From positions 1 through 64,000 of the IMG/VR virus record IMGVR_UViG_2866513116_000002: a DNA stretch of 64,000 nucleotides, one strand, 5' to 3'. The translations under genes were made by a program, and so were the position numbers. Positions 2,118-9,501 of the stretch are shown piece by piece. The stretch is from a virus. Taxonomy: Duplodnaviria > Caudoviricetes. How positions within the stretch are numbered: the stretch's first letter is position 1; the number at the start of each line of letters is the position of its first letter. The notes beneath the pieces were generated by a model. It was not told the DNA's origin and made no database searches. It worked only from the letters and a program-made list of their open reading frames with translations.

Positions 2118-2190
2118 GGGGCTATGGCGCAGTTGGTAGCGCGACTCGTTCGCATCGAGTAGGTCAGGGGTTCGATTCCCCTTAGCTCCA
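2118..2190 (+). tRNA. tRNA-Ala (anticodon CGC); prophage integration site (attL)
   Basis: GGGGCTA..TAGCTCC acceptor stem with G3:U70, anticodon arm ACTCG-TT CGC AT-CGAGT, GTTCGA T-loop; integrase ends 14 bp downstream. Confidence 0.97.
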
Positions 2191-2203
2191 CAGAAACACC
2201 AGT

Positions 2204-3460
2204 TCAGACGGCCTCTCCCGACTTCCGGGAGGGGCCGTTTTTCGTGTCACCCACGGAATACCCACGAGAAACCGGAGCGAGCCGGTCCAGCACGTGGCGG
2301 ACATCCCCCGTGATCTTCTTGCGCTGCACGTAGTGGCGGCGGGTGATCTCCGGCGAGGTGTGGCCCAGTTGCTCGGCCGCGGCCTCCATGCCGATCTCGT
2401 CAGCGAGGATCGTCGCCACGGTCTTGCGGAAGGTCTTGGGCGTCACCCACTCGAACATGTCGGCCGGACCGTCGGGCTCCCCGTTCTCGAGGACCACGAA
2501 CTTGCGGGCGTCGCGGAACTGACGCCGGGTGTTGGCGGTAGTGCGGGGTCCACCATCGCGAGAGGGGAACACGAGTCCGAGTTCGTTCGAAGGGAGGTCG
2601 CGCGCCTTCTGTCGCTGCAGGGCGCTCACCATGAAGTCGGGCAGGATGAGCCAGTGCTGGCTCGTGGCGGTCTTCGGCCGCGGCTGGTACTCGCCGCGCT
2701 TGTTGATCGCACCCGCGAGGTACACCATCGCCGGTGAAAGGTCGGTGGCCCACCGGATGTGCTCCCACTGGAAGGCGAGCACCTCGGAGATGCGCCCACC
2801 GGACCCGATGAGGCAGTCGGCGAGGTCGGGGAAATCCGTCCCCCGCTTGGGTCCGTATTGGTTGGTGCCCGACCAGGTGGCGATGCGGATCCGCAACTGC
2901 TGCAGCTCGTCGATGGTCAAAGCTCGCGCTGCTGCCGGCGCCGAGAACCGACGCGTCGTATCGACGATGGGGTTGCGGTCGATCGCGTCGTGCTGGGCGG
3001 CGAGGGTCATCATTCCCGACAACACCGTGCGGCACTGGCGTGAGCGTGCGTCGGTCGCCACAGCGCGCAGGAACGCATCGAGCACGCCGACGGTCGCCTC
3101 GCCAACGCGGACATCGCCGAGTCCGGGTGTGATGTGCAGCTTGATCAGCTCTCGGTCGTTGTCCAGGGTGCCGGCGGCATACTTGCTCGACTCTTCGCGC
3201 TTCTCCAGCCACAGCTTCGCGAGATCGGCGAGCCGGGTATCGCGGGTGATGTCGACGACCGAGTCCGTTGGCCGCGCCCTCGTGGACAGCGCCTCCACGA
3301 GGGCCCGCTCGGCCTTCGCCCCACTGGCGCCGAAGCGCTCCACTACCCGCGTCTTGCCGTCGTAGTCCCGGTACTGTGCCCGGGCTCGGTGGCGTCCGGG
3401 AGCTACCTCGGTGCGGTTGATCCGGCCCCAGGTGCCGAGGGGGAGTGGTGGGCGTGGCAT
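2204..3460 (-). CDS. int: Tyrosine integrase
   Basis: GGRISE (R), KTFRK (HxxR variant), LGH..T..HY catalytic motifs. Confidence 0.95.
   Translation of the reverse strand: MPRPPLPLGTWGRINRTEVAPGRHRARAQYRDYDGKTRVVERFGASGAKAERALVEALSTRARPTDSVVDITRDTRLADLAKLWLEKREESSKYAAGTLDNDRELIKLHITPGLGDVRVGEATVGVLDAFLRAVATDARSRQCRTVLSGMMTLAAQHDAIDRNPIVDTTRRFSAPAAARALTIDELQQLRIRIATWSGTNQYGPKRGTDFPDLADCLIGSGGRISEVLAFQWEHIRWATDLSPAMVYLAGAINKRGEYQPRPKTATSQHWLILPDFMVSALQRQKARDLPSNELGLVFPSRDGGPRTTANTRRQFRDARKFVVLENGEPDGPADMFEWVTPKTFRKTVATILADEIGMEAAAEQLGHTSPEITRRHYVQRKKITGDVRHVLDRLAPVSRGYSVGDTKNGPSRKSGEAV
2208..2242 (+). terminator. Intrinsic terminator after the tRNA, overlapping the integrase 3' end
   Basis: ACGGCCTCTCCCG-loop-CGGGAGGGGCCGT followed by a T run. 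Confidence 0.75.
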
Positions 3461-3463
3461 CGG

Positions 3464-3916
3464 CTATTCCGTCGGTGTTGGGGTGTCGGTGTCGTCGTCA
3501 GGGGTGTCGGTCGGGGTCGAGTTGTTGTCGGCGATGTTCGCAATCCCGGTCGCGTCGCCGTTCTGATGCACAACCGCTTCGCAGGAGAATGCTTCATCGC
3601 CGACGTAGCCACCGAACTTGTTCTTGGCGTTGACCATTCCCACGATGATGTAGAAGTGGTCTGTCGCAGCAGCGGATGTCTCAAGCGTGGCTGGCGGCGT
3701 GTACTGGTGGTCTGGACGTTTTGTCACTTGCTCCTGGCTGAACTGCGCACTGCCAGGGTCGCTGAGCTGATTCTTTATTGAATTCTCGCATGCCTCTTTC
3801 GCATTCGCCTCTGCGATGTATGGAGTATCGCCATCTGGCGTGCTGGAACATCCGCTGACGATGAGGACAGCCAGCATGCAACTTGCGGCAATTGGGGCGA
3901 ATCGGGCGATTCTCAT
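3464..3916 (-). CDS. Lipoprotein (possible superinfection exclusion)
   Basis: Signal peptide with lipobox VSGC; LSDPGSAQF and VNAKNKFGGYVG motifs typical of prophage lipoproteins. Confidence 0.75.
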   Translation of the reverse strand: MRIARFAPIAASCMLAVLIVSGCSSTPDGDTPYIAEANAKEACENSIKNQLSDPGSAQFSQEQVTKRPDHQYTPPATLETSAAATDHFYIIVGMVNAKNKFGGYVGDEAFSCEAVVHQNGDATGIANIADNNSTPTDTPDDDTDTPTPTE

Positions 3917-3986: not shown

Positions 3987-4211
3987 TCATCTCCCCAGAG
4001 GACGTTCTCGCAGTCTCCGCAGTCGGTTCACCAGCACCGGGTTGTAGGCGAGTGCCTCCTCGGTGTCCAGGAGCCGATTCACGCGCTGCCAGTACCGCGT
4101 GACCGAGATGCCGAACTGGGCCATGATCGCGTCGGCCTGCCTGCCGGCGTATCGCCACTGCTTGTCGGCGAAGTCGAGTAGGGCGCGGTCGTCGCTCGAG
4201 AGTGCCCTCAC
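3987..4211 (-). CDS. DUF3263 family protein
   Basis: DRALLDF..QWRYAG..I..FGISVTRYWQRVNRLLD..ALAYNPVLVNRLRRLR; GTGA overlap with the upstream stop. Confidence 0.85.
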   Translation of the reverse strand: MRALSSDDRALLDFADKQWRYAGRQADAIMAQFGISVTRYWQRVNRLLDTEEALAYNPVLVNRLRRLRERPLGR

Positions 4212-4726
4212 GGGTTCGCCACCCAGGTTTGGCCGCCGCACAGGATTGCTTTGCCCTGCGGGTCGGTGCTGACGCTGTCGACGCTGGGATCGCATGGGTC
4301 GCCGATGTTGTGGGTCTCGCCGTCGTTGTCGCCGTGGAGTACCCACTGGTACCCGCCGCCGGCGCCGAGGTAGGCGCACACGAGGCTCGTGCCGTCGGCT
4401 GCGGTCCCGAAGGAGCGGGCTTCGGATTCGAAGCATTGGCCGCCTTGTACTGGCGTCGATCCCGTGGGGGTCGGTTCCTCGGTTGTCGTTTCCGTGACCG
4501 TCGGTGTGGGCGCGGCGGCTGGTGGTGTCGACGACGCCGGTGGTGTGGTGGTCGCGGTCATCGTGACCGTCGAGGGACCGGTCGCGCCGGTCGAGTTGTC
4601 CCTTCGGCTGTCGACGATCACGAATATCACCGCGACGACGAGAGCCGCGACGAGTAGGAACGCGATGACGCACAGCACCCAGGTCAGCCGAGAGCTGCGC
4701 CGTGGTTCGGATTCGGGGTACGTCAT
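4208..4726 (-). CDS. Single-TM protein with T/P-rich linker and Cys-rich C-terminal domain
   Basis: AAGGAG RBS before ATG 4726; TM helix; T/P-rich stalk. Confidence 0.75.
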   Translation of the reverse strand: MTYPESEPRRSSRLTWVLCVIAFLLVAALVVAVIFVIVDSRRDNSTGATGPSTVTMTATTTPPASSTPPAAAPTPTVTETTTEEPTPTGSTPVQGGQCFESEARSFGTAADGTSLVCAYLGAGGGYQWVLHGDNDGETHNIGDPCDPSVDSVSTDPQGKAILCGGQTWVANP

Positions 4727-4730
4727 CGGT

Positions 4731-5171
4731 TCAGGCTCCTTGCTCGCGCCCGGCGCCCCGCCGGTCCAGTTCGTCGTCGATCCACGCCCGCTCATCATCC
4801 GACAGGGACTGCACCAACGTCACCAGCATGGGCACATCCACCCACAACTCCTCGGCGACCTCATCGGTGTGGCGGGTCCAGCACAGGACGTCGACGAGGT
4901 CCTCGAGCGCGACCAGCCGGCGCGCTGCGATCCTCTCGACCGTCAGCTCCTCCCGCGCCCGGAGCACGCGGTCCGTGGGGAAGACACGGCGTTCGTCGTG
5001 AACGAGTTCGTGTGCAATGGTGCAGCGCCGCTCGTCGCCGAGCATGTGGCGATTCACTTCGATGCGATCACCGACGATGCGGCCCCGAACGCCGACGGGC
5101 AGGTGCTCGACGAACTCGATCCTCAGGTGCTCGCGGAGTCGGGCGTCGCGCCATGGGTGGTAGATCGACAT
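4731..5171 (-). CDS. ImmA/IrrE family metallopeptidase
   Basis: RRCTIAHELVH HExxH motif, E..VE.IAARRLV, AEELWV HTH-like tail. Confidence 0.9.
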   Translation of the reverse strand: MSIYHPWRDARLREHLRIEFVEHLPVGVRGRIVGDRIEVNRHMLGDERRCTIAHELVHDERRVFPTDRVLRAREELTVERIAARRLVALEDLVDVLCWTRHTDEVAEELWVDVPMLVTLVQSLSDDERAWIDDELDRRGAGREQGA

Positions 5172-5178
5172 GCCGGAC

Positions 5179-5201
5179 ACCGTAGAACCAGACACTGACA
5201 A
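5179..5201 (-). promoter_or_regulatory. PafBC-dependent (RecA-NDp) type promoter driving leaderless immA
   Basis: Minus strand reads TTGTCAG-TGTCTGGTTC(10 nt)-TACGGT-7 nt-ATG, matching TGTCRG-N10-TAnnnT. Confidence 0.75.
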
Positions 5202-5221
5202 TCGCCTTGCGATGCAACGAA

Positions 5222-5716
5222 TTACACTGATGCAATTCCCGCCGGTGGGGCATCGTCACTAGCTTCCGCATCATCGTCGAAGAGCATCGGCAACACCTCA
5301 TCCCAGGACGGTGTGCGGATGGGGAGCATTGCTGTGGGCATACCGATCAGTCTCGTCTGATCTGCCACTGCCGCCCGCACGAAACCAAGGACATACTCCA
5401 AGGCGTGGTCGCGCAGGAATTCTTCAATCTCCTTCCGGCCAGGCGCCGATACATCGACAAAACGGAACTGGACCGCGCAACTCAGCTCAGCCGTGATGTC
5501 TTGGTCCGCCAGCTCAAGCTCGACGCGCAGCTCTATGTGATAGCTGGCAGAGTCACCATCATCTGGAGCGTCAAGAACCTGATGATGCGAGAGACCAAAA
5601 CCGATCTGTAACCGAGCGTCCTCATCCCACTGATCGCGTTCATCCCCATAACGTCGCTCGATCGAGCGTTTGAACCAACGAAGTCCGGCACCCGCGGCAC
5701 TCTCGATCAGAGCCAT
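5222..5716 (-). CDS. SecB-like chaperone (TAC chaperone)
   Basis: 164 aa, acidic; beta-rich N-half then EFLRDHALEYVLGFVRAAVADQTRLIGMPTAMLP, resembling the SecB helix-helix-LP signature. Confidence 0.65.
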   Translation of the reverse strand: MALIESAAGAGLRWFKRSIERRYGDERDQWDEDARLQIGFGLSHHQVLDAPDDGDSASYHIELRVELELADQDITAELSCAVQFRFVDVSAPGRKEIEEFLRDHALEYVLGFVRAAVADQTRLIGMPTAMLPIRTPSWDEVLPMLFDDDAEASDDAPPAGIASV

Positions 5717-5717
5717 T

Positions 5718-6110
5718 TCATCCCATCGCCCGCGTCGCCAACGGTGGCCACGGCCGCAGATCGTAGTCGCTTTCTGCGATCTCGTCGTGGTCCCAAGTAA
5801 CGACGTCGGCGTTTCGCGAGATCATGCGGCACTTCTCGGAGTGCCAGCTTGAGACATCCACGCGAAAGATGGCGTTCACGGCCTTGGCGTATCGACGCAC
5901 GGTCGCCATCGTGGGATTGGTCGATCCACTCTCGAACCGAGAGACCTGCGACACGTCCACCTTCATCATCTCCGCCACCTCTGCAAGCGACAGTTCGCGA
6001 TCGATGCGGCATTGGCGCAGATCAAATATCAACTTCAACTGCTCGTTGGCCAGCTCCGCCCCGAGGTGGTCGATCGATGTTGGGTGCTCAACTCCTGGAA
6101 ACATGCTCAT
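5718..6110 (-). CDS. XRE/HigA-like HTH antitoxin with C-terminal extension (possible ChAD)
   Basis: LSLAEVAEMMKVDVSQVSRFESGSTNPTMATVRRYAKAV HTH_3, followed by about 45 aa of aromatic/acidic tail; start may be 6134. Confidence 0.8.
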   Translation of the reverse strand: MSMFPGVEHPTSIDHLGAELANEQLKLIFDLRQCRIDRELSLAEVAEMMKVDVSQVSRFESGSTNPTMATVRRYAKAVNAIFRVDVSSWHSEKCRMISRNADVVTWDHDEIAESDYDLRPWPPLATRAMG

Positions 6111-6195
6111 GCGGTGTGTGCCCTTTCGATGCATACGAAGGCACCGCGCTCTGCGCGGGCTCTCACTCCCTCATTGCGCTATAACGCAAAAGCTA

Positions 6196-6750
6196 TCACG
6201 CTGCGTTCCAACGTCGCCAGGTAGTCCGCATGTTCAGACACCGATCAATCCCCGAGTGCATCGCGTCCTTAATCTCGACTGTCTGTTGGTTCGGGTCGTA
6301 CGTCGCGTCATTCGCTGGTTTCGCGCCAAGCCCACTGCCAACGATCTCAATGGTCGCACCCTCAGGCGTTGCACGGCGTTCGATAAAGTACAGCCGGTAC
6401 AGCGTTAGCTGATCACTGGACTCGGCGTAGAGTTCGCCCGCCCATGGCATCGGTCGTTCAGGCGTGAAGTTGTGATCCGGCAGATCCATCACCCTTTCAC
6501 CTACCGGCACCCTGTGGGACGGATGACTCACTCCTTCGAGGCTGTTGTTCTGGGTGGGTGCGATTCCCTGCAGGCGCGCGCGGTTCGTGAGCGCGATCAG
6601 TAGGTCGTAAGCCTCAGAGTCCACAGCGTGAAGCGCACCGAGCTGCTCTTCAGCCTCAAAGGTGTATGACCAGCTACAGCCCGGTCGATGAATCCGCGAT
6701 GCTAGTGCTGCGTCGATAGGATCGATTATGCATCCTCCCGCCCGTTGCAA
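6196..6750 (-). CDS. Divergent RelE/HigB-like toxin candidate
   Basis: GELY..LYRLYF and K..QTVEI..A segments resemble the HigB/RelE core; directly upstream of the HTH antitoxin; start uncertain. Confidence 0.5.
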   Translation of the reverse strand: MQRAGGCIIDPIDAALASRIHRPGCSWSYTFEAEEQLGALHAVDSEAYDLLIALTNRARLQGIAPTQNNSLEGVSHPSHRVPVGERVMDLPDHNFTPERPMPWAGELYAESSDQLTLYRLYFIERRATPEGATIEIVGSGLGAKPANDATYDPNQQTVEIKDAMHSGIDRCLNMRTTWRRWNAA

Positions 6751-7019
6751 TCGCCAATCCGACCCCTTGCTACGGCGATGACCAGGCCAGTCAGTGCTCC
6801 GATTGCGGCGGCGACCAGACCGTAGAGGACTTCGTTGGCAAGGACACCTACGGCGACGCCTAGTGCGTAGGCGACACCTCCGTCAGCGCCTCGGTGGGCG
6901 AACTCCTCGTTGCTGAGCTGCGCGAGCGCAACAAGAATGACCAGGGTGGTCCCAACACACCCGCCTGTCAGCGCACCTACTTTAACTGCGCGCCCGCGCA
7001 GGGATGAGTTCTCAAACAT
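6726..7019 (-). CDS. Small two-TM membrane protein
   Basis: Two hydrophobic stretches. Confidence 0.6.
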   Translation of the reverse strand: MFENSSLRGRAVKVGALTGGCVGTTLVILVALAQLSNEEFAHRGADGGVAYALGVAVGVLANEVLYGLVAAAIGALTGLVIAVARGRIGDCNGREDA

Positions 7020-7169
7020 GCCCGGCCCTTCTTGTCGGCTCGCGACTACTCGGCGTGCGGCTCAAGAATTCTCCCTGGGGTCGCCGCACTTGTCGTGGTT
7101 GATCGCAAGATTCATCTGGTCGAGGGACGGCCGAGCGCTGCGGGGTAGGGTGCCACGACTCCGCTTGAG

Positions 7170-7270
7170 TCACCGCGGCCCCCTCGGCGCCGCGTGTTCG
7201 GTCCATCGCACTCCGTCCCAGTAGCGCTGTAGTGCGGGGTTGACGGGGTCGGGGTACCAGCCGGCGGGAC
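7170..7270 (-). pseudogene. DUF2510 domain fragment, not in the ORF track
   Basis: Minus frame encodes PAGWYPDPVNPALQRYWDGVRWTEH; no ATG/GTG start after the upstream stop. Confidence 0.65.
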
Positions 7271-7388
7271 CACGTAGGGCGGCGATCTCGGCTCTCCTCG
7301 GGGTTGATCTGCGACTTCACTGACTCTTTCATCGCAGCCGGTTGCCAGGCGCAGCCCTCCGAGTTCTTCGCGGCCAGCGGCCCCGACG

Positions 7389-8057
7389 TCACGCTGGCAA
7401 CCCTTTCGGCGGGGCAGACTTAGGAGGCACCATCGCCGCGGACAATGTCAGCAAAACGAGTCCAATTCCGGCGACAATCATTGGTCGGATGTTCGAGGTG
7501 TCAAGGATGACGAGTGCGGCGACGATACCGAACAGGAGGAAACCGATTGAGGCGAGTCCCACGTGCCACGCACGCCGCCGATACAGATTCCGACCGTGAA
7601 GGCAGACCAGCATTACGCAGCAGCATACGATTCCGTATGACACGAGCCAACTACAGATGCCGATGACGAACCACGCTGCTGTCTCGGCTGAACCTCTGAG
7701 AAGCGAAGAAGCGTAGGCCACCGGAATTACGAGTGCTGTTGTCACGACGATGAAGTGTGCGACTTGTCTACCGATCTTCTCGTTGCCACTCAACTGCGTG
7801 GCGGGCGCGATGAATCGAGTGGCCACCCACACCACCAGGTAGGCGGATAGGGCCTGTGGCAGGTAGACCAGATAGTCGCCGAAAATCGTTCGGGTCAAAA
7901 CAAACTGGATCAGTCCAAGCCCTGATCCGCCGAAGGCCAATGCGGTGGCGCCAGCTGCGACCGCCGACAGGGTCGCTAGTGGACGCTCGCGGCGCCTGTT
8001 AGCGACCACCGCTCCAACTGCTATCAGTACGAACGTCGCTGTGAGTTGCAAGTTCAC
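7389..8057 (-). CDS. Multi-pass membrane protein
   Basis: About 7 hydrophobic segments; starts 4 bp after the repressor stop. Confidence 0.7.
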   Translation of the reverse strand: MNLQLTATFVLIAVGAVVANRRRERPLATLSAVAAGATALAFGGSGLGLIQFVLTRTIFGDYLVYLPQALSAYLVVWVATRFIAPATQLSGNEKIGRQVAHFIVVTTALVIPVAYASSLLRGSAETAAWFVIGICSWLVSYGIVCCCVMLVCLHGRNLYRRRAWHVGLASIGFLLFGIVAALVILDTSNIRPMIVAGIGLVLLTLSAAMVPPKSAPPKGLPA

Positions 8058-8060
8058 CTC

Positions 8061-9038
8061 TTACTCGAACCCTCCCGTGTCCGTGCCATCATTGAAGTCT
8101 TGCGATTCCTCGCCAAGTCCCGCGTCTCGGTCACGGAGCTGCTCACCCCTTGTTCGTCTGGGGCCGCGGCGATTGGCGTACGCGAGTGCTCGTTGCTCGA
8201 TTGGCAGGTTCGCCGCGATGAGATCAAACTGGCCAGTCTCAATCCGTAGAACCAGTTCCCGCAAGTCGGCAATCAGGTCCGCGATGACGCCTTCCGCGCC
8301 AGCTACATCGCGAGTCTCGACAAGCTCAAGGACCGCCGCCCGTTTCGCAACAGCGATGGACGCGGACGCCAATGACTCGTTCCCATCGACGAGCCGACGC
8401 ACGGCGTGGGTGTCAACGGACTGGGTGGAACCGCGAGCGACGATTTCGCCGAGCACGTCGTCCCGAGCGCTAGTTAGCATGCCTACTGCTTGGGCGAGTA
8501 GATTCCGGAAATGCTCTGCATGGAGCCGAGCATCGTCAGCTGCTTTGCCTTCTGGGTCGGTCCCACCATCGCGGCCGGCGAGGTCGTAGTCGTCAGTGTG
8601 TTCACCGTAGCCAGTAGACACACGAGACGCGTTCTTCTGGTCTTCACGCGCTTCGCCCGATGCTCCCGATTTCTGCGTAGCTTCCAGTTCATGGCGATGT
8701 CCTCGCGTCGCGACGATGCTGCGGATCAGCTCGTCTACTGCGCGGCGCTGCCGTTCGTCGAGGAGTGCTGCTTCGTCGGGCGCGACATATGGCCCGAGCG
8801 GGGCGGAGACATCCCATGCGGCCTCTTGTAGCTGCTTTTCGGTGAACGGCACCACCTTCGCGAGCTTGCTGAGCGTCTTCGCGGTCGGTCGCCCGTGACC
8901 ACCTGACCAGTAGGCGGCGATGGTGCCGTACCGGAGGTCCACGCCCGCCTTCTCCGCTTTGTCCGCGGCCTGGCGAGCGGTAACGGACCCGCTGTTCAGG
9001 AGATCGCTCAACTTGCTCACGGTTTCAGACGCTCCCAT
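8061..9038 (-). CDS. Immunity repressor (CI-like)
   Basis: N-terminal HTH-like region, divergent from Cro, RG..LR..D..GEESQD tail typical of actinophage repressors. Confidence 0.7.
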   Translation of the reverse strand: MGASETVSKLSDLLNSGSVTARQAADKAEKAGVDLRYGTIAAYWSGGHGRPTAKTLSKLAKVVPFTEKQLQEAAWDVSAPLGPYVAPDEAALLDERQRRAVDELIRSIVATRGHRHELEATQKSGASGEAREDQKNASRVSTGYGEHTDDYDLAGRDGGTDPEGKAADDARLHAEHFRNLLAQAVGMLTSARDDVLGEIVARGSTQSVDTHAVRRLVDGNESLASASIAVAKRAAVLELVETRDVAGAEGVIADLIADLRELVLRIETGQFDLIAANLPIEQRALAYANRRGPRRTRGEQLRDRDAGLGEESQDFNDGTDTGGFE

Positions 9039-9065
9039 GCTTGCCGCTTGTTCGAATAGCCGGAG

Positions 9066-9204
9066 TGTAACTCCAAAAGTTACAAATCACTCGGATGTGA
9101 TTTCTTAACCTGCATGTCAGGTGCAGTTACAGGGGTTGCGCAATGTAACTAGAAGCAGTTACATTGGTCTTGGTGCTTGACCAAGCAACAAGAAGGGAGT
9201 TACA
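9066..9204. promoter_or_regulatory. Genetic-switch operators and cro promoter
   Basis: TGTAACT-N5-AGTTACA (9066-9084), AATGTAACT-N6-AGTTACATT (9142-9165), half-sites at 9125 and 9198; TTGCGC-18-TACATT promoter overlaps the second palindrome. Confidence 0.75.
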
Positions 9205-9501
9205 GTGATCGCACACCGCAGACCAGTCGACACAGGGAGGCTCTGGGTGCGACTTATCAGCAAGCAAGCGTTCCGGGACTACATGAAGCACCGCGGCATG
9301 ACCAATGAAGAACTGGCCCGGGAGGCGAAGTGTTCGCCGTCGTCGATTGCCTTTCTTCGTTCGCGCGGCAAGAGTGCTAGGAACACTGTTGGTCCCGACA
9401 CGGCCCGCCGCATAGAGGAGGCTCTCAACGCCCCTCCTGGATCGCTCTTTTCGGCGCAAGTGCTTGTCGCTTCGCCCAGCGTCAACCGTGGAGCTGCGTG
9501 A
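9205..9501 (+). CDS. Cro-like HTH protein
   Basis: MTNEELAREAKCSPSSIAFLRS HTH; ARRIEEALNAPPGSLF. Confidence 0.85.
   Translation: MIAHRRPVDTGRLWVRLISKQAFRDYMKHRGMTNEELAREAKCSPSSIAFLRSRGKSARNTVGPDTARRIEEALNAPPGSLFSAQVLVASPSVNRGAA

Follow-up and report, generated by a model that had tools for sequence, protein, structure and literature searches.

In the 64,000-nucleotide stretch of DNA analysed here (positions 1 to 64,000 of the IMG/VR record IMGVR_UViG_2866513116_000002; hereafter the window), three co-oriented genes on the minus strand most likely form a tripartite toxin-antitoxin-chaperone (TAC) module of a temperate actinophage, a reading to which we assign a probability of roughly 0.7. The window is part of contig 18 of a host genome of 4.5 Mb in 30 contigs and carries a prophage whose host is a Gordonia-type bacterium. 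The cassette is located in the lysogeny region of this prophage, with a repressor-like gene on one side and a gene for an ImmA-like peptidase on the other. Gene T (6196-6750) encodes a toxin-like protein of 184 residues with a predicted RelE/HigB1 fold and a TTG start, gene A (5718-6134) a HigA-like antitoxin candidate of the XRE helix-turn-helix (HTH) type with 138 residues as listed, and gene C (5222-5716) a SecB-fold chaperone candidate of 164 residues.

TACs are known from one locus of M. tuberculosis and from a few antiphage systems of E. coli, and prophage-borne antiphage TACs are known as well. The gene order T, A, C of the window is that of the M. tuberculosis TAC, which consists of HigB1 (Rv1955), HigA1 (Rv1956) and Rv1957. 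As in a TAC, the genes for T, A and the SecB-fold protein are adjacent and co-oriented and, judging from the gene layout, are predicted to form an operon: the stop codon of A (TGA, 5718-5720) and the start codon of C (ATG, 5714-5716) are separated by a single base. The original prediction, which was made from the letters of the window alone, had proposed such a module between the repressor and immA. The coordinates and lengths of its three co-oriented genes hold, the arrangement recurs elsewhere, and both the flanking genes and the counterparts in Gordonia phage Agueybana and in a Tsukamurella ocularis prophage (L009) agree with a placement in the lysogeny region; the identity of the repressor is the weakly supported part of this description.

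The SecB-fold protein and the tail of the antitoxin candidate

The product of C is acidic, with an isoelectric point (pI) of 4.36 and 33 Asp and Glu residues next to 15 Lys and Arg residues, and it matches no Pfam, PHROG or NCBIfam family. A HMMER scan of 1.84 billion representatives yielded 37 relatives of C, 13 of which were found at E<=1e-10. PADLOC matched C to one family only, PD-T4-9_C (CmdC), with an E of 0.005 for the window protein and matches in 5 of 36 members of the C family (best E 6.7e-4). PD-T4-9 is CmdTAC, the third component of which has been described as a SecB-like chaperone (PMC9519451).

We obtained an AlphaFold2 (AF2) model of C from an 8-sequence alignment, with a predicted local distance difference test score (pLDDT) of 78.4, which consists of four long strands, a 30-residue helix and a short helix. 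A Foldseek search of the PDB with this model returned 23 matches at E<=0.001 (best E 3e-6, template modelling score 0.43-0.57), all of them chains of H. influenzae or E. coli SecB, of M. tuberculosis Rv1957, or of the SecB-like entries 2hng and 2o2a. In VIA-align, the model superposed on 5mtw_C (Rv1957 in complex with a ChAD peptide) with a Z of 10.9 and a root mean square deviation (rmsd) of 4.2 over 126 aligned residues, and on E. coli SecB with a Z of 10.8, the next unrelated fold being LptE at Z 5.7. The model gives C a SecB fold, with Rv1957, the TAC chaperone of M. tuberculosis, as its nearest structural relative. The original prediction had pointed to an acidic 164-residue protein one base downstream of A that ends in a SecB-like EFL..A..YV.GFVRAAVAD.T..G.P..LP string, and had named a failure to adopt the SecB fold as a reason to give up the idea; the string is present, and the model returns the anticipated fold. 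In the host genome (100% complete) a Pfam SecB match was not found. When BFVD was searched with the model of C, it matched SecB-fold uncharacterised proteins of Gordonia phage JuJu (E 4.6e-6) and Corynebacterium phage Juicebox (E 1.7e-5), as well as two Siphoviridae entries named SecB.

The protein encoded by A matches Pfam HTH_3 over residues 39-85 (E 8.5e-11). Its conservation begins at MFPG, at residue 11, so that the true start is probably the ATG at 6110 or 6104. Compared with PDB sequences, the profile of the A family matched DdrO (E 2.2e-6), M. tuberculosis HigA3 (1e-5) and HigA2 (2.6e-4), and S. pneumoniae HigA (6af3_B, 6.7e-3). Across nine loci, the first 92 residues can be aligned well and include 31 invariant columns, and the last 45-68 residues are unalignable. 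In the window this C-terminal tail (residues 93-138; 5721-5858) comprises 46 residues, among them three Trp and one Tyr (W97, W114, Y124, W129) and nine Asp or Glu, in keeping with the Trp/Asp-rich tail of about 45 residues that had been noticed behind the XRE-HTH. An aromatic residue directly follows the HTH in all nine sequences (W in eight, Y in one), and most of the tails contain one or two more Trp 15-30 residues further on.

ChADs have been described as C-terminal antitoxin extensions that are variable in length and composition, and the M. tuberculosis ChAD contains the motifs 108-WHRLSSYR-115 and 137-WARHISVR-144, of which W108, R110 and Y114 are buried in the chaperone (PMC5105189, PMC6377645). 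The tail of A corresponds to this definition and can be called ChAD-like; A hence combines membership in HigA, which like MqsA and HicB is a canonical family of TAC antitoxins, with a variable, aromatic C-terminal extension. The four parts of the cassette differ in their conservation. Over eight loci (28 pairs), the mean pairwise identity was 64.3% for the HTH part of A, 52.7% for T, 25.6% for C and 20.7% for the tail of A. The same pattern, in which tail and chaperone evolve fast and toxin and HTH are conserved, has been described for TACs (PMC5105189).

The toxin-like protein and its predicted fold

The genome's own call for T is a protein of 142 residues that starts at V43 and omits a conserved N-terminal strand. 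As residues 18-27 (S18, R19, I20, H21, C25, W27), upstream of this annotated start, are kept in the 13 T homologues, the 184-residue form starting at TTG, or one near it, is real. Starting at the TTG at 6750, T shares 25 bases with the end of the membrane-protein open reading frame (ORF) upstream. The thirteen homologues are 175-185 residues long and stem from Tsukamurella, Nocardia, Mycolicibacterium, Agueybana and metagenomes. Their alignment contains 44 invariant columns, and the invariant polar residues include R19, H21, H79, R80, E106, R119, E124, R126, K144, Q156, R179 and R180. The GELY, LYRLYF and QTVEI segments that had drawn attention to this gene lie at residues 105, 117 and 156, respectively. 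Relatives of T were not found among the IMG/VR viral contigs, and neither phmmer nor profile searches of PDB sequences retrieved a match. The ESM Atlas returned unnamed clusters only, including one lead with 22% Gp49 membership at a score of 0.88, which is below the tool's reliable level. Longer or fused forms of T were not found in a search that the tool itself rates as weak evidence.

The AF2 model of T, which was built from a 13-sequence alignment, shows one domain with a pLDDT of 89.8 and a predicted template modelling score (pTM) of 0.86. Its N-terminal half is formed by a strand (26-29), two helices (31-43 and 45-61) and a region spanning residues 62-103 with a short strand and a helix, and its C-terminal half by three strands (104-110, 116-126 and 133-145) and a helix (153-173). 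We also considered that T might only comprise the C-terminal ~97 residues from M88, preceded by an unrelated N-terminal part; this was rejected in view of the one-domain model and the high conservation of residues 18-103.

We compared the model with 48,161 representative chains by VIA-align, a tool that cautions that a Z of 7-8 often arises by chance. The top match was 7nbu_Y, M. tuberculosis HigB1, with a Z of 10.2, an rmsd of 3.2, 111 of 121 residues aligned and 16% identity, followed by S. pneumoniae HigB (6af3_A) with a Z of 9.5. These two chains were the only ones at Z>=8; both are above the chance level and are covered over nearly their whole length. RelE, YafQ, YoeB, HigB2 and ParE toxins followed at Z 5.4-7.7, and 20 of the top 21 rows are toxin-antitoxin (TA) toxins of the RelE/ParE superfamily. 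By its model, T adopts the RelE/HigB1 fold of a strand, two helices and an antiparallel sheet, and it also possesses the long C-terminal helix (153-173) of the HigB1/Gp49 branch that has been reported for HigB1 (PMC9098466). The suggestion that T is an unusually long and highly diverged RelE-fold protein is thereby borne out at the level of the predicted structure.

Within the aligned range, 47 of 158 residues of T have no partner in HigB1, mainly residues 62-103 as judged from the DSSP string. This region is highly conserved and contains the invariant residues N68, H79, R80, P82-G84, V87, F95, P102 and W103. For a comparison of the active sites we used K58, E66, R68, R77, K95 and K99 as the catalytic set of HigB1. 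By motif order only, the invariant E106, R119 and K144 of T lie on the strands on which counterparts of HigB1 E66, R77 and K95 would be expected, and Y108 would stand at the position of R68.

Recurrence in genomes and phages

We surveyed the cassette by hmmsearch with the T, A and C profiles over six-frame translations, combined with ORF reading. Eleven loci contain a T homologue, namely the window, Agueybana, seven genomes of Nocardia, Tsukamurella and Mycolicibacterium, and two metagenome contigs. The alignments behind the profiles include several of the surveyed loci; independent cases are L006, L031 and L032 for C, and L001, L006, L031 and L032 for A. Gene A is found directly downstream of T in all 11 loci. 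A gene of the C family stands intact beside A in eight of them, and is off the contig end (L032), interrupted (L006) or undetected (L007) in one each. The T-A-C order recurs in 9 of the 11 loci, and since it does so in other genera, the arrangement is beyond chance. The junction of A and C, a one-base gap in the window, is an overlap of 1-7 bases in the genome loci. The interrupted locus, L006 from Nocardia sp. alder85J, contains the C gene in two pieces (N-terminal, 5897-6169; C-terminal, 8971-9375) on either side of an insertion of about 2.8 kb (6170-8970) that carries an IS4-family transposase (Nterm_IS4, E 3.3e-19). The T gene of this locus has an in-frame TGA (5462-5465), 13 codons before the normal stop and ahead of the invariant C171 and WRRW. 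Among 401 genomes of the same order as the window's host, relatives of C were present in only three, the window's own genome included, which makes the C family sparse and patchy. This single case is circumstantial; a nonsense codon in T next to a split C is what would be expected of a harmful T that is set free once the chaperone is lost.

One of these three is the locus L029, whose first gene scores above the Gp49 cut-off of Pfam (29.9 bits vs 23.9) and whose third gene is related to C (E 4e-5) and matches Pfam SecB with an E of 0.005. The window's A aligns to the antitoxin of this canonical Gp49-HigA-SecB locus with 40% identity over 75 residues (E 3e-11). Judged by its sequence profiles, L029 is a textbook TAC, and this homology places A and C in the HigA and SecB-TA lineages that make up canonical TACs of actinobacteria, with T alone being aberrant.

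A block TTTGCG(T/G)TATA...CA is invariant in an alignment of nine otherwise diverged T-A spacers. It forms a palindrome, perfect over 14 bp in several loci, which begins a few bases past the T stop. In the window it is represented by the near-palindrome TTTGCGTTATAGCGCA at 6175-6190, just past the stop codon of T; this is the single site in the 64 kb, matched on both strands, with 0.16 expected. Each of the eight module-carrying loci examined has one match (8/8), and none was found in the locus of phage Jablanski, which is without the module. We consider the palindrome a candidate operator for A, which may also contain an internal promoter of A and C.

By blastn against 50,697 phage records, 129 Gordonia phage records match, of which 127 share the peptidase part only. 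The cassette itself was covered only by the two records of Gordonia phage Agueybana, over 80% of the query at 69% identity. Agueybana genes 43 (hypothetical), 42 (HTH) and 41 (hypothetical) form its cassette and are flanked by the immunity repressor and a metalloprotease. Downstream of the cassette, L009 encodes a peptidase (57-59% identity) and an integrase (49%) homologous to those of the window, as well as a homologue of the window's DUF3263 gene. Because the corresponding slot of Jablanski holds a methyltransferase and other genes, we regard the slot ahead of the ImmA-like peptidase as a variable cargo slot.

In Gordonia phage Wrigley, the genes for gp48, gp47 and gp46 (L033, 1959-3402) occupy this slot between the immunity repressor and the ImmA-like peptidase. 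Wrigley has a homologue of A (gp47, hhalign probability 98.2%) and of C (gp46, tblastn E 1e-6) in common with the window and differs in the first gene: similarity between gp48 (187 residues) and T was not detected (hhalign probability 1%), and gp48 matches no family. The FPVG, GEL, RAYF and KP strings, which by eye occur in the same order in both proteins, had raised the idea that gp48 is a diverged T, which was dropped on account of the hhalign result. It is possible that the Wrigley locus is likewise a TAC, only with another first gene. The genome announcement remarks that gp46 resembles SecB and neither calls the locus a TAC nor ties it to a TA system (PMC9670969). None of the three phage records annotates the cassette genes as more than hypothetical proteins or a plain helix-turn-helix protein.

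Agueybana contains a further SecB-like ORF. A 144-residue ORF directly upstream of its T homologue (L001, 7055-7489, minus strand) matches the profile of the C family (hhalign probability 91%, E 1e-6; hmmsearch E 3.9e-8). Only the last 87 codons are annotated, as gp44, and the ORF is preceded by gp45, a helix-turn-helix protein of 220 residues. Together, gp45 and the SecB-like ORF may constitute a second chaperone-linked pair. Other TA pairs are annotated near the integrase, namely HicAB in Agueybana (L001, 2172-2894) and RelBE in Jablanski (L002, 2434-2933), and a BrnT-like toxin is annotated near the integrase of Wrigley; TA cargo is common in this region of related Gordonia phages.

Alternative explanations, prophage setting and proposed function

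Several results weigh against the assignment of the cassette as a TAC module, and of T as a standard toxin. PDB sequences contain no match for the C protein (phmmer) or for the 36-member profile of its family, and Pfam SecB (PF02556) is matched by 2 of the 36 members with a best, sub-threshold E of 0.027. The third protein is a SecB homologue by its fold, whereas the Pfam sequence threshold does not place it among the SecB export chaperones. The models of C and T were built on shallow alignments of 8 and 13 sequences, and Foldseek found no PDB match for T at E<=0.001, with a best E of 0.13 and HigB2 (5ja8) ranked 19th at E 0.82. Between loci, the similarity of the A tails is uncorrelated with that of the chaperones (rho 0.13, p 0.52, 28 non-independent pairs), and in L007 a different acidic ORF of 173 residues takes the position of C (hhalign probability 8.9% vs the C family). 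T matches no Pfam, PHROG, NCBIfam or PADLOC family; none of its 13 members matches Pfam Gp49 (PF05973) at E<=5, and hhalign of T vs 12 Gp49-type toxins of related genomes gave a probability of 0.5% (E 0.12). Furthermore, T is acidic, with a pI of 5.32 (family range 5.0-7.7, 12 of 13 members at <=6.7). For the Gp49 toxins of relatives (n=12, starts approximated) the median pI is 9.5, and for the L029 toxin the pI is 10.1. Binding of HigB1 to 16S rRNA has been ascribed to a large positive patch that is missing from the non-toxic HigB2 and HigB3 (PMC9098466), and the whole-protein pI of T speaks against a basic surface of this kind.

The acidic pI and the lack of Gp49/HigB profile similarity argue against T being a standard ribosome-dependent HigB, which we regard as doubtful. 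As T is acidic and contains a conserved insertion, its target may differ from the ribosomal A site; we consider such a target a real possibility, and T probably works unlike HigB1 in its exact mechanism.

The same properties would suit a cassette that is regulatory and non-toxic, in which T is a degenerate RelE-fold protein like HigB2 or HigB3, without RNase activity and ribosome binding, and controls transcription in the lysogeny region together with the HTH protein. This explanation draws on the charge of T, its missing similarity to Gp49 profiles, the reported non-toxicity of HigB2 and HigB3 that are without the positive patch (PMC9098466), and the conserved operator-like palindrome within the cassette. 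We nevertheless consider it unlikely. Within the cassette only the HTH part of A is more conserved than T (52.7% mean identity), and the many polar residues among its 44 invariant columns suggest an active site under selection. Moreover, a nonsense codon of T in the sole locus with a disrupted C would be expected if an unchecked T is harmful, and it is not obvious what a purely regulatory pair would need a SecB-fold partner of its own for.

Less probable still is that T and A form an ordinary two-part HigBA-like pair and that the SecB-fold protein is encoded by an independent phage gene downstream and acts, for instance, as a holdase on phage or host proteins. Lone SecB-fold proteins do exist in other actinophages (JuJu, Juicebox and the two Siphoviridae SecB entries), and the second SecB-like ORF of Agueybana (hhalign probability 91%) lies upstream of T. 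However, only one base lies between A and C in the window and the two genes overlap by 1-7 bases in the genome loci, they remain together in 9 of the 11 T loci, and they are paired with another first gene in Wrigley and also in the canonical Gp49 locus L029. In addition, A bears the variable aromatic extension that is the mark of chaperone-addicted antitoxins.

DdrO is a substrate of an IrrE-type peptidase. That A is an ImmR/DdrO-type repressor cut by the adjacent ImmA/IrrE-like peptidase, and the cassette a prophage induction switch with no TA function, would agree with DdrO being the best PDB sequence match of the A profile (E 2.2e-6) and with the ImmA-like peptidase directly downstream in the window, Agueybana, Wrigley and L009, but is very improbable, since the peptidase gene occurs in 129 Gordonia phage records and the cassette in only 2 (Agueybana), peptidase similarity was not found in the flanks (up to 5 kb) of 6 of 7 T-A genome loci, so that the two, being found apart, are not linked as a pair, and the A profile also matches HigA2, HigA3 and S. 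pneumoniae HigA.

The surroundings of the TAC candidate are those of a prophage end. A tRNA-Ala gene (anticodon CGC, 2118-2191) abuts a tyrosine-integrase-like ORF (2204-3460), and this junction (2118-3460) is likely the attachment site and left end of the prophage. It is followed on the minus strand by a lipoprotein-like ORF (3464-3916), a DUF3263 gene (3987-4220, E 6.7e-25), a gene for an exported or membrane protein (4208-4798) and, downstream of C, the gene for the ImmA-like metalloprotease with its HExxH motif (4731-5201; phrog_87, E 1.8e-17). A motif TTGTCAG-N10-TACGGT-N7-ATG is present on the minus strand at 5172-5215, 7 bases past the stop of C and ahead of the peptidase; should it act as a promoter, the peptidase would be controlled separately from the TAC transcript. 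On the other side of the cassette, between T and the repressor-like gene, the minus strand encodes two predicted membrane proteins, of 97 residues (6726-7019) and of 222 residues (7389-8057, with a weak HisKA_7TM match at E 3.9e-4), which could be superinfection-exclusion cargo of the prophage. The protein in the repressor position (8061-9038, minus strand, 325 residues) shows weak matches to HTH_3 (E 0.1) and to PHROG repressor families (E 2e-4 to 6e-3). Its gene is divergent from a Cro-like HTH gene at 9205, and BLASTP detected no similarity to the Agueybana immunity repressor (E 0.28).

By analogy to the TACs of M. tuberculosis and E. coli, a tetramer of C would hold the tail of A, keeping A soluble and protected from proteolysis. 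A would neutralise T and probably bind the palindrome past the T stop, regulating A and C. C might then be drawn off by titration; the most plausible titrants would be structural proteins of a heterotypic infecting phage, which are abundant and prone to aggregate. With C diverted, A would be lost and T would arrest the cell, the outcome being abortive infection; addiction to the prophage would be a side effect.

CmdT is an ADP-ribosyltransferase and E. coli HigB a basic RNase. These toxins are unrelated in sequence to T, and the host and phages of the window differ from those of the E. coli systems in being actinobacterial. HigBAC and CmdTAC resemble the cassette as tripartite systems with a SecB-like chaperone, which is described there as reading aromatic ChAD patterns and as being diverted by phage structural proteins (10.1101/2024.02.24.581848, PMC9519451). 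For HigBAC, the diverting protein is reported to be the lambda major tail protein gpV, acting via ChAD-like aromatic patterns (10.1101/2024.02.24.581848). The M. tuberculosis TAC provides the best structural matches of T and C, namely HigB1 and ChAD-bound Rv1957, and its antitoxin likewise has an XRE-HTH and a C-terminal extension of ~45 residues with spaced Trp motifs (PMC5105189, PMC6377645). In contrast, T and C are only 14-16% identical to these counterparts, T is about 60 residues longer than HigB1 and acidic instead of basic, and the M. tuberculosis module is located in a chromosomal island rather than in a temperate phage. Similarly, S. pneumoniae HigBA (6af3) has a toxin chain that matches the fold of T (6af3_A) and an antitoxin chain matched by the A profile (6af3_B), whereas T differs from Gp49-like HigB by its insertion, its acidic pI and the lack of a Gp49 match.

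A more specific proposal, which we put forward tentatively and regard as less likely than not, is that T represents a new branch of the RelE/HigB1 fold, acidic and of ~180 residues, with a conserved insertion of ~45 residues, possible metal binding by the four invariant Cys/His residues H21, C25, H79 and C171, and a target outside the A site. On this view, the cassette would constitute the first TAC defence of an actinophage, whose SecB-fold protein senses structural proteins of competing Gordonia phages and whose first genes are exchangeable, as in the case of Wrigley gp48.

In the literature we did not find a description of a TAC in an actinobacteriophage, supplementary lists being outside the scope of this search; the nearest text is the remark on Wrigley gp46 (PMC9670969). 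What is new here is the actinophage setting and an unannotated family of toxin-like proteins that is tied to HigB1 solely by structure prediction. New, too, are the atypical charge and insertion of T and the apparent exchange of the first gene between phages. The TAC can be tested in cultivable and harmless pairs of phage and host, with Agueybana or Wrigley lysogens of Gordonia terrae 3612 being challenged by the hundreds of sequenced Gordonia phages. As a predicted RelE-fold protein, T has a charge and an insertion that suggest a mechanism different from that of HigB1, and the slot between the repressor and the ImmA-like peptidase provides evidence that these phages exchange defence-type cargo.

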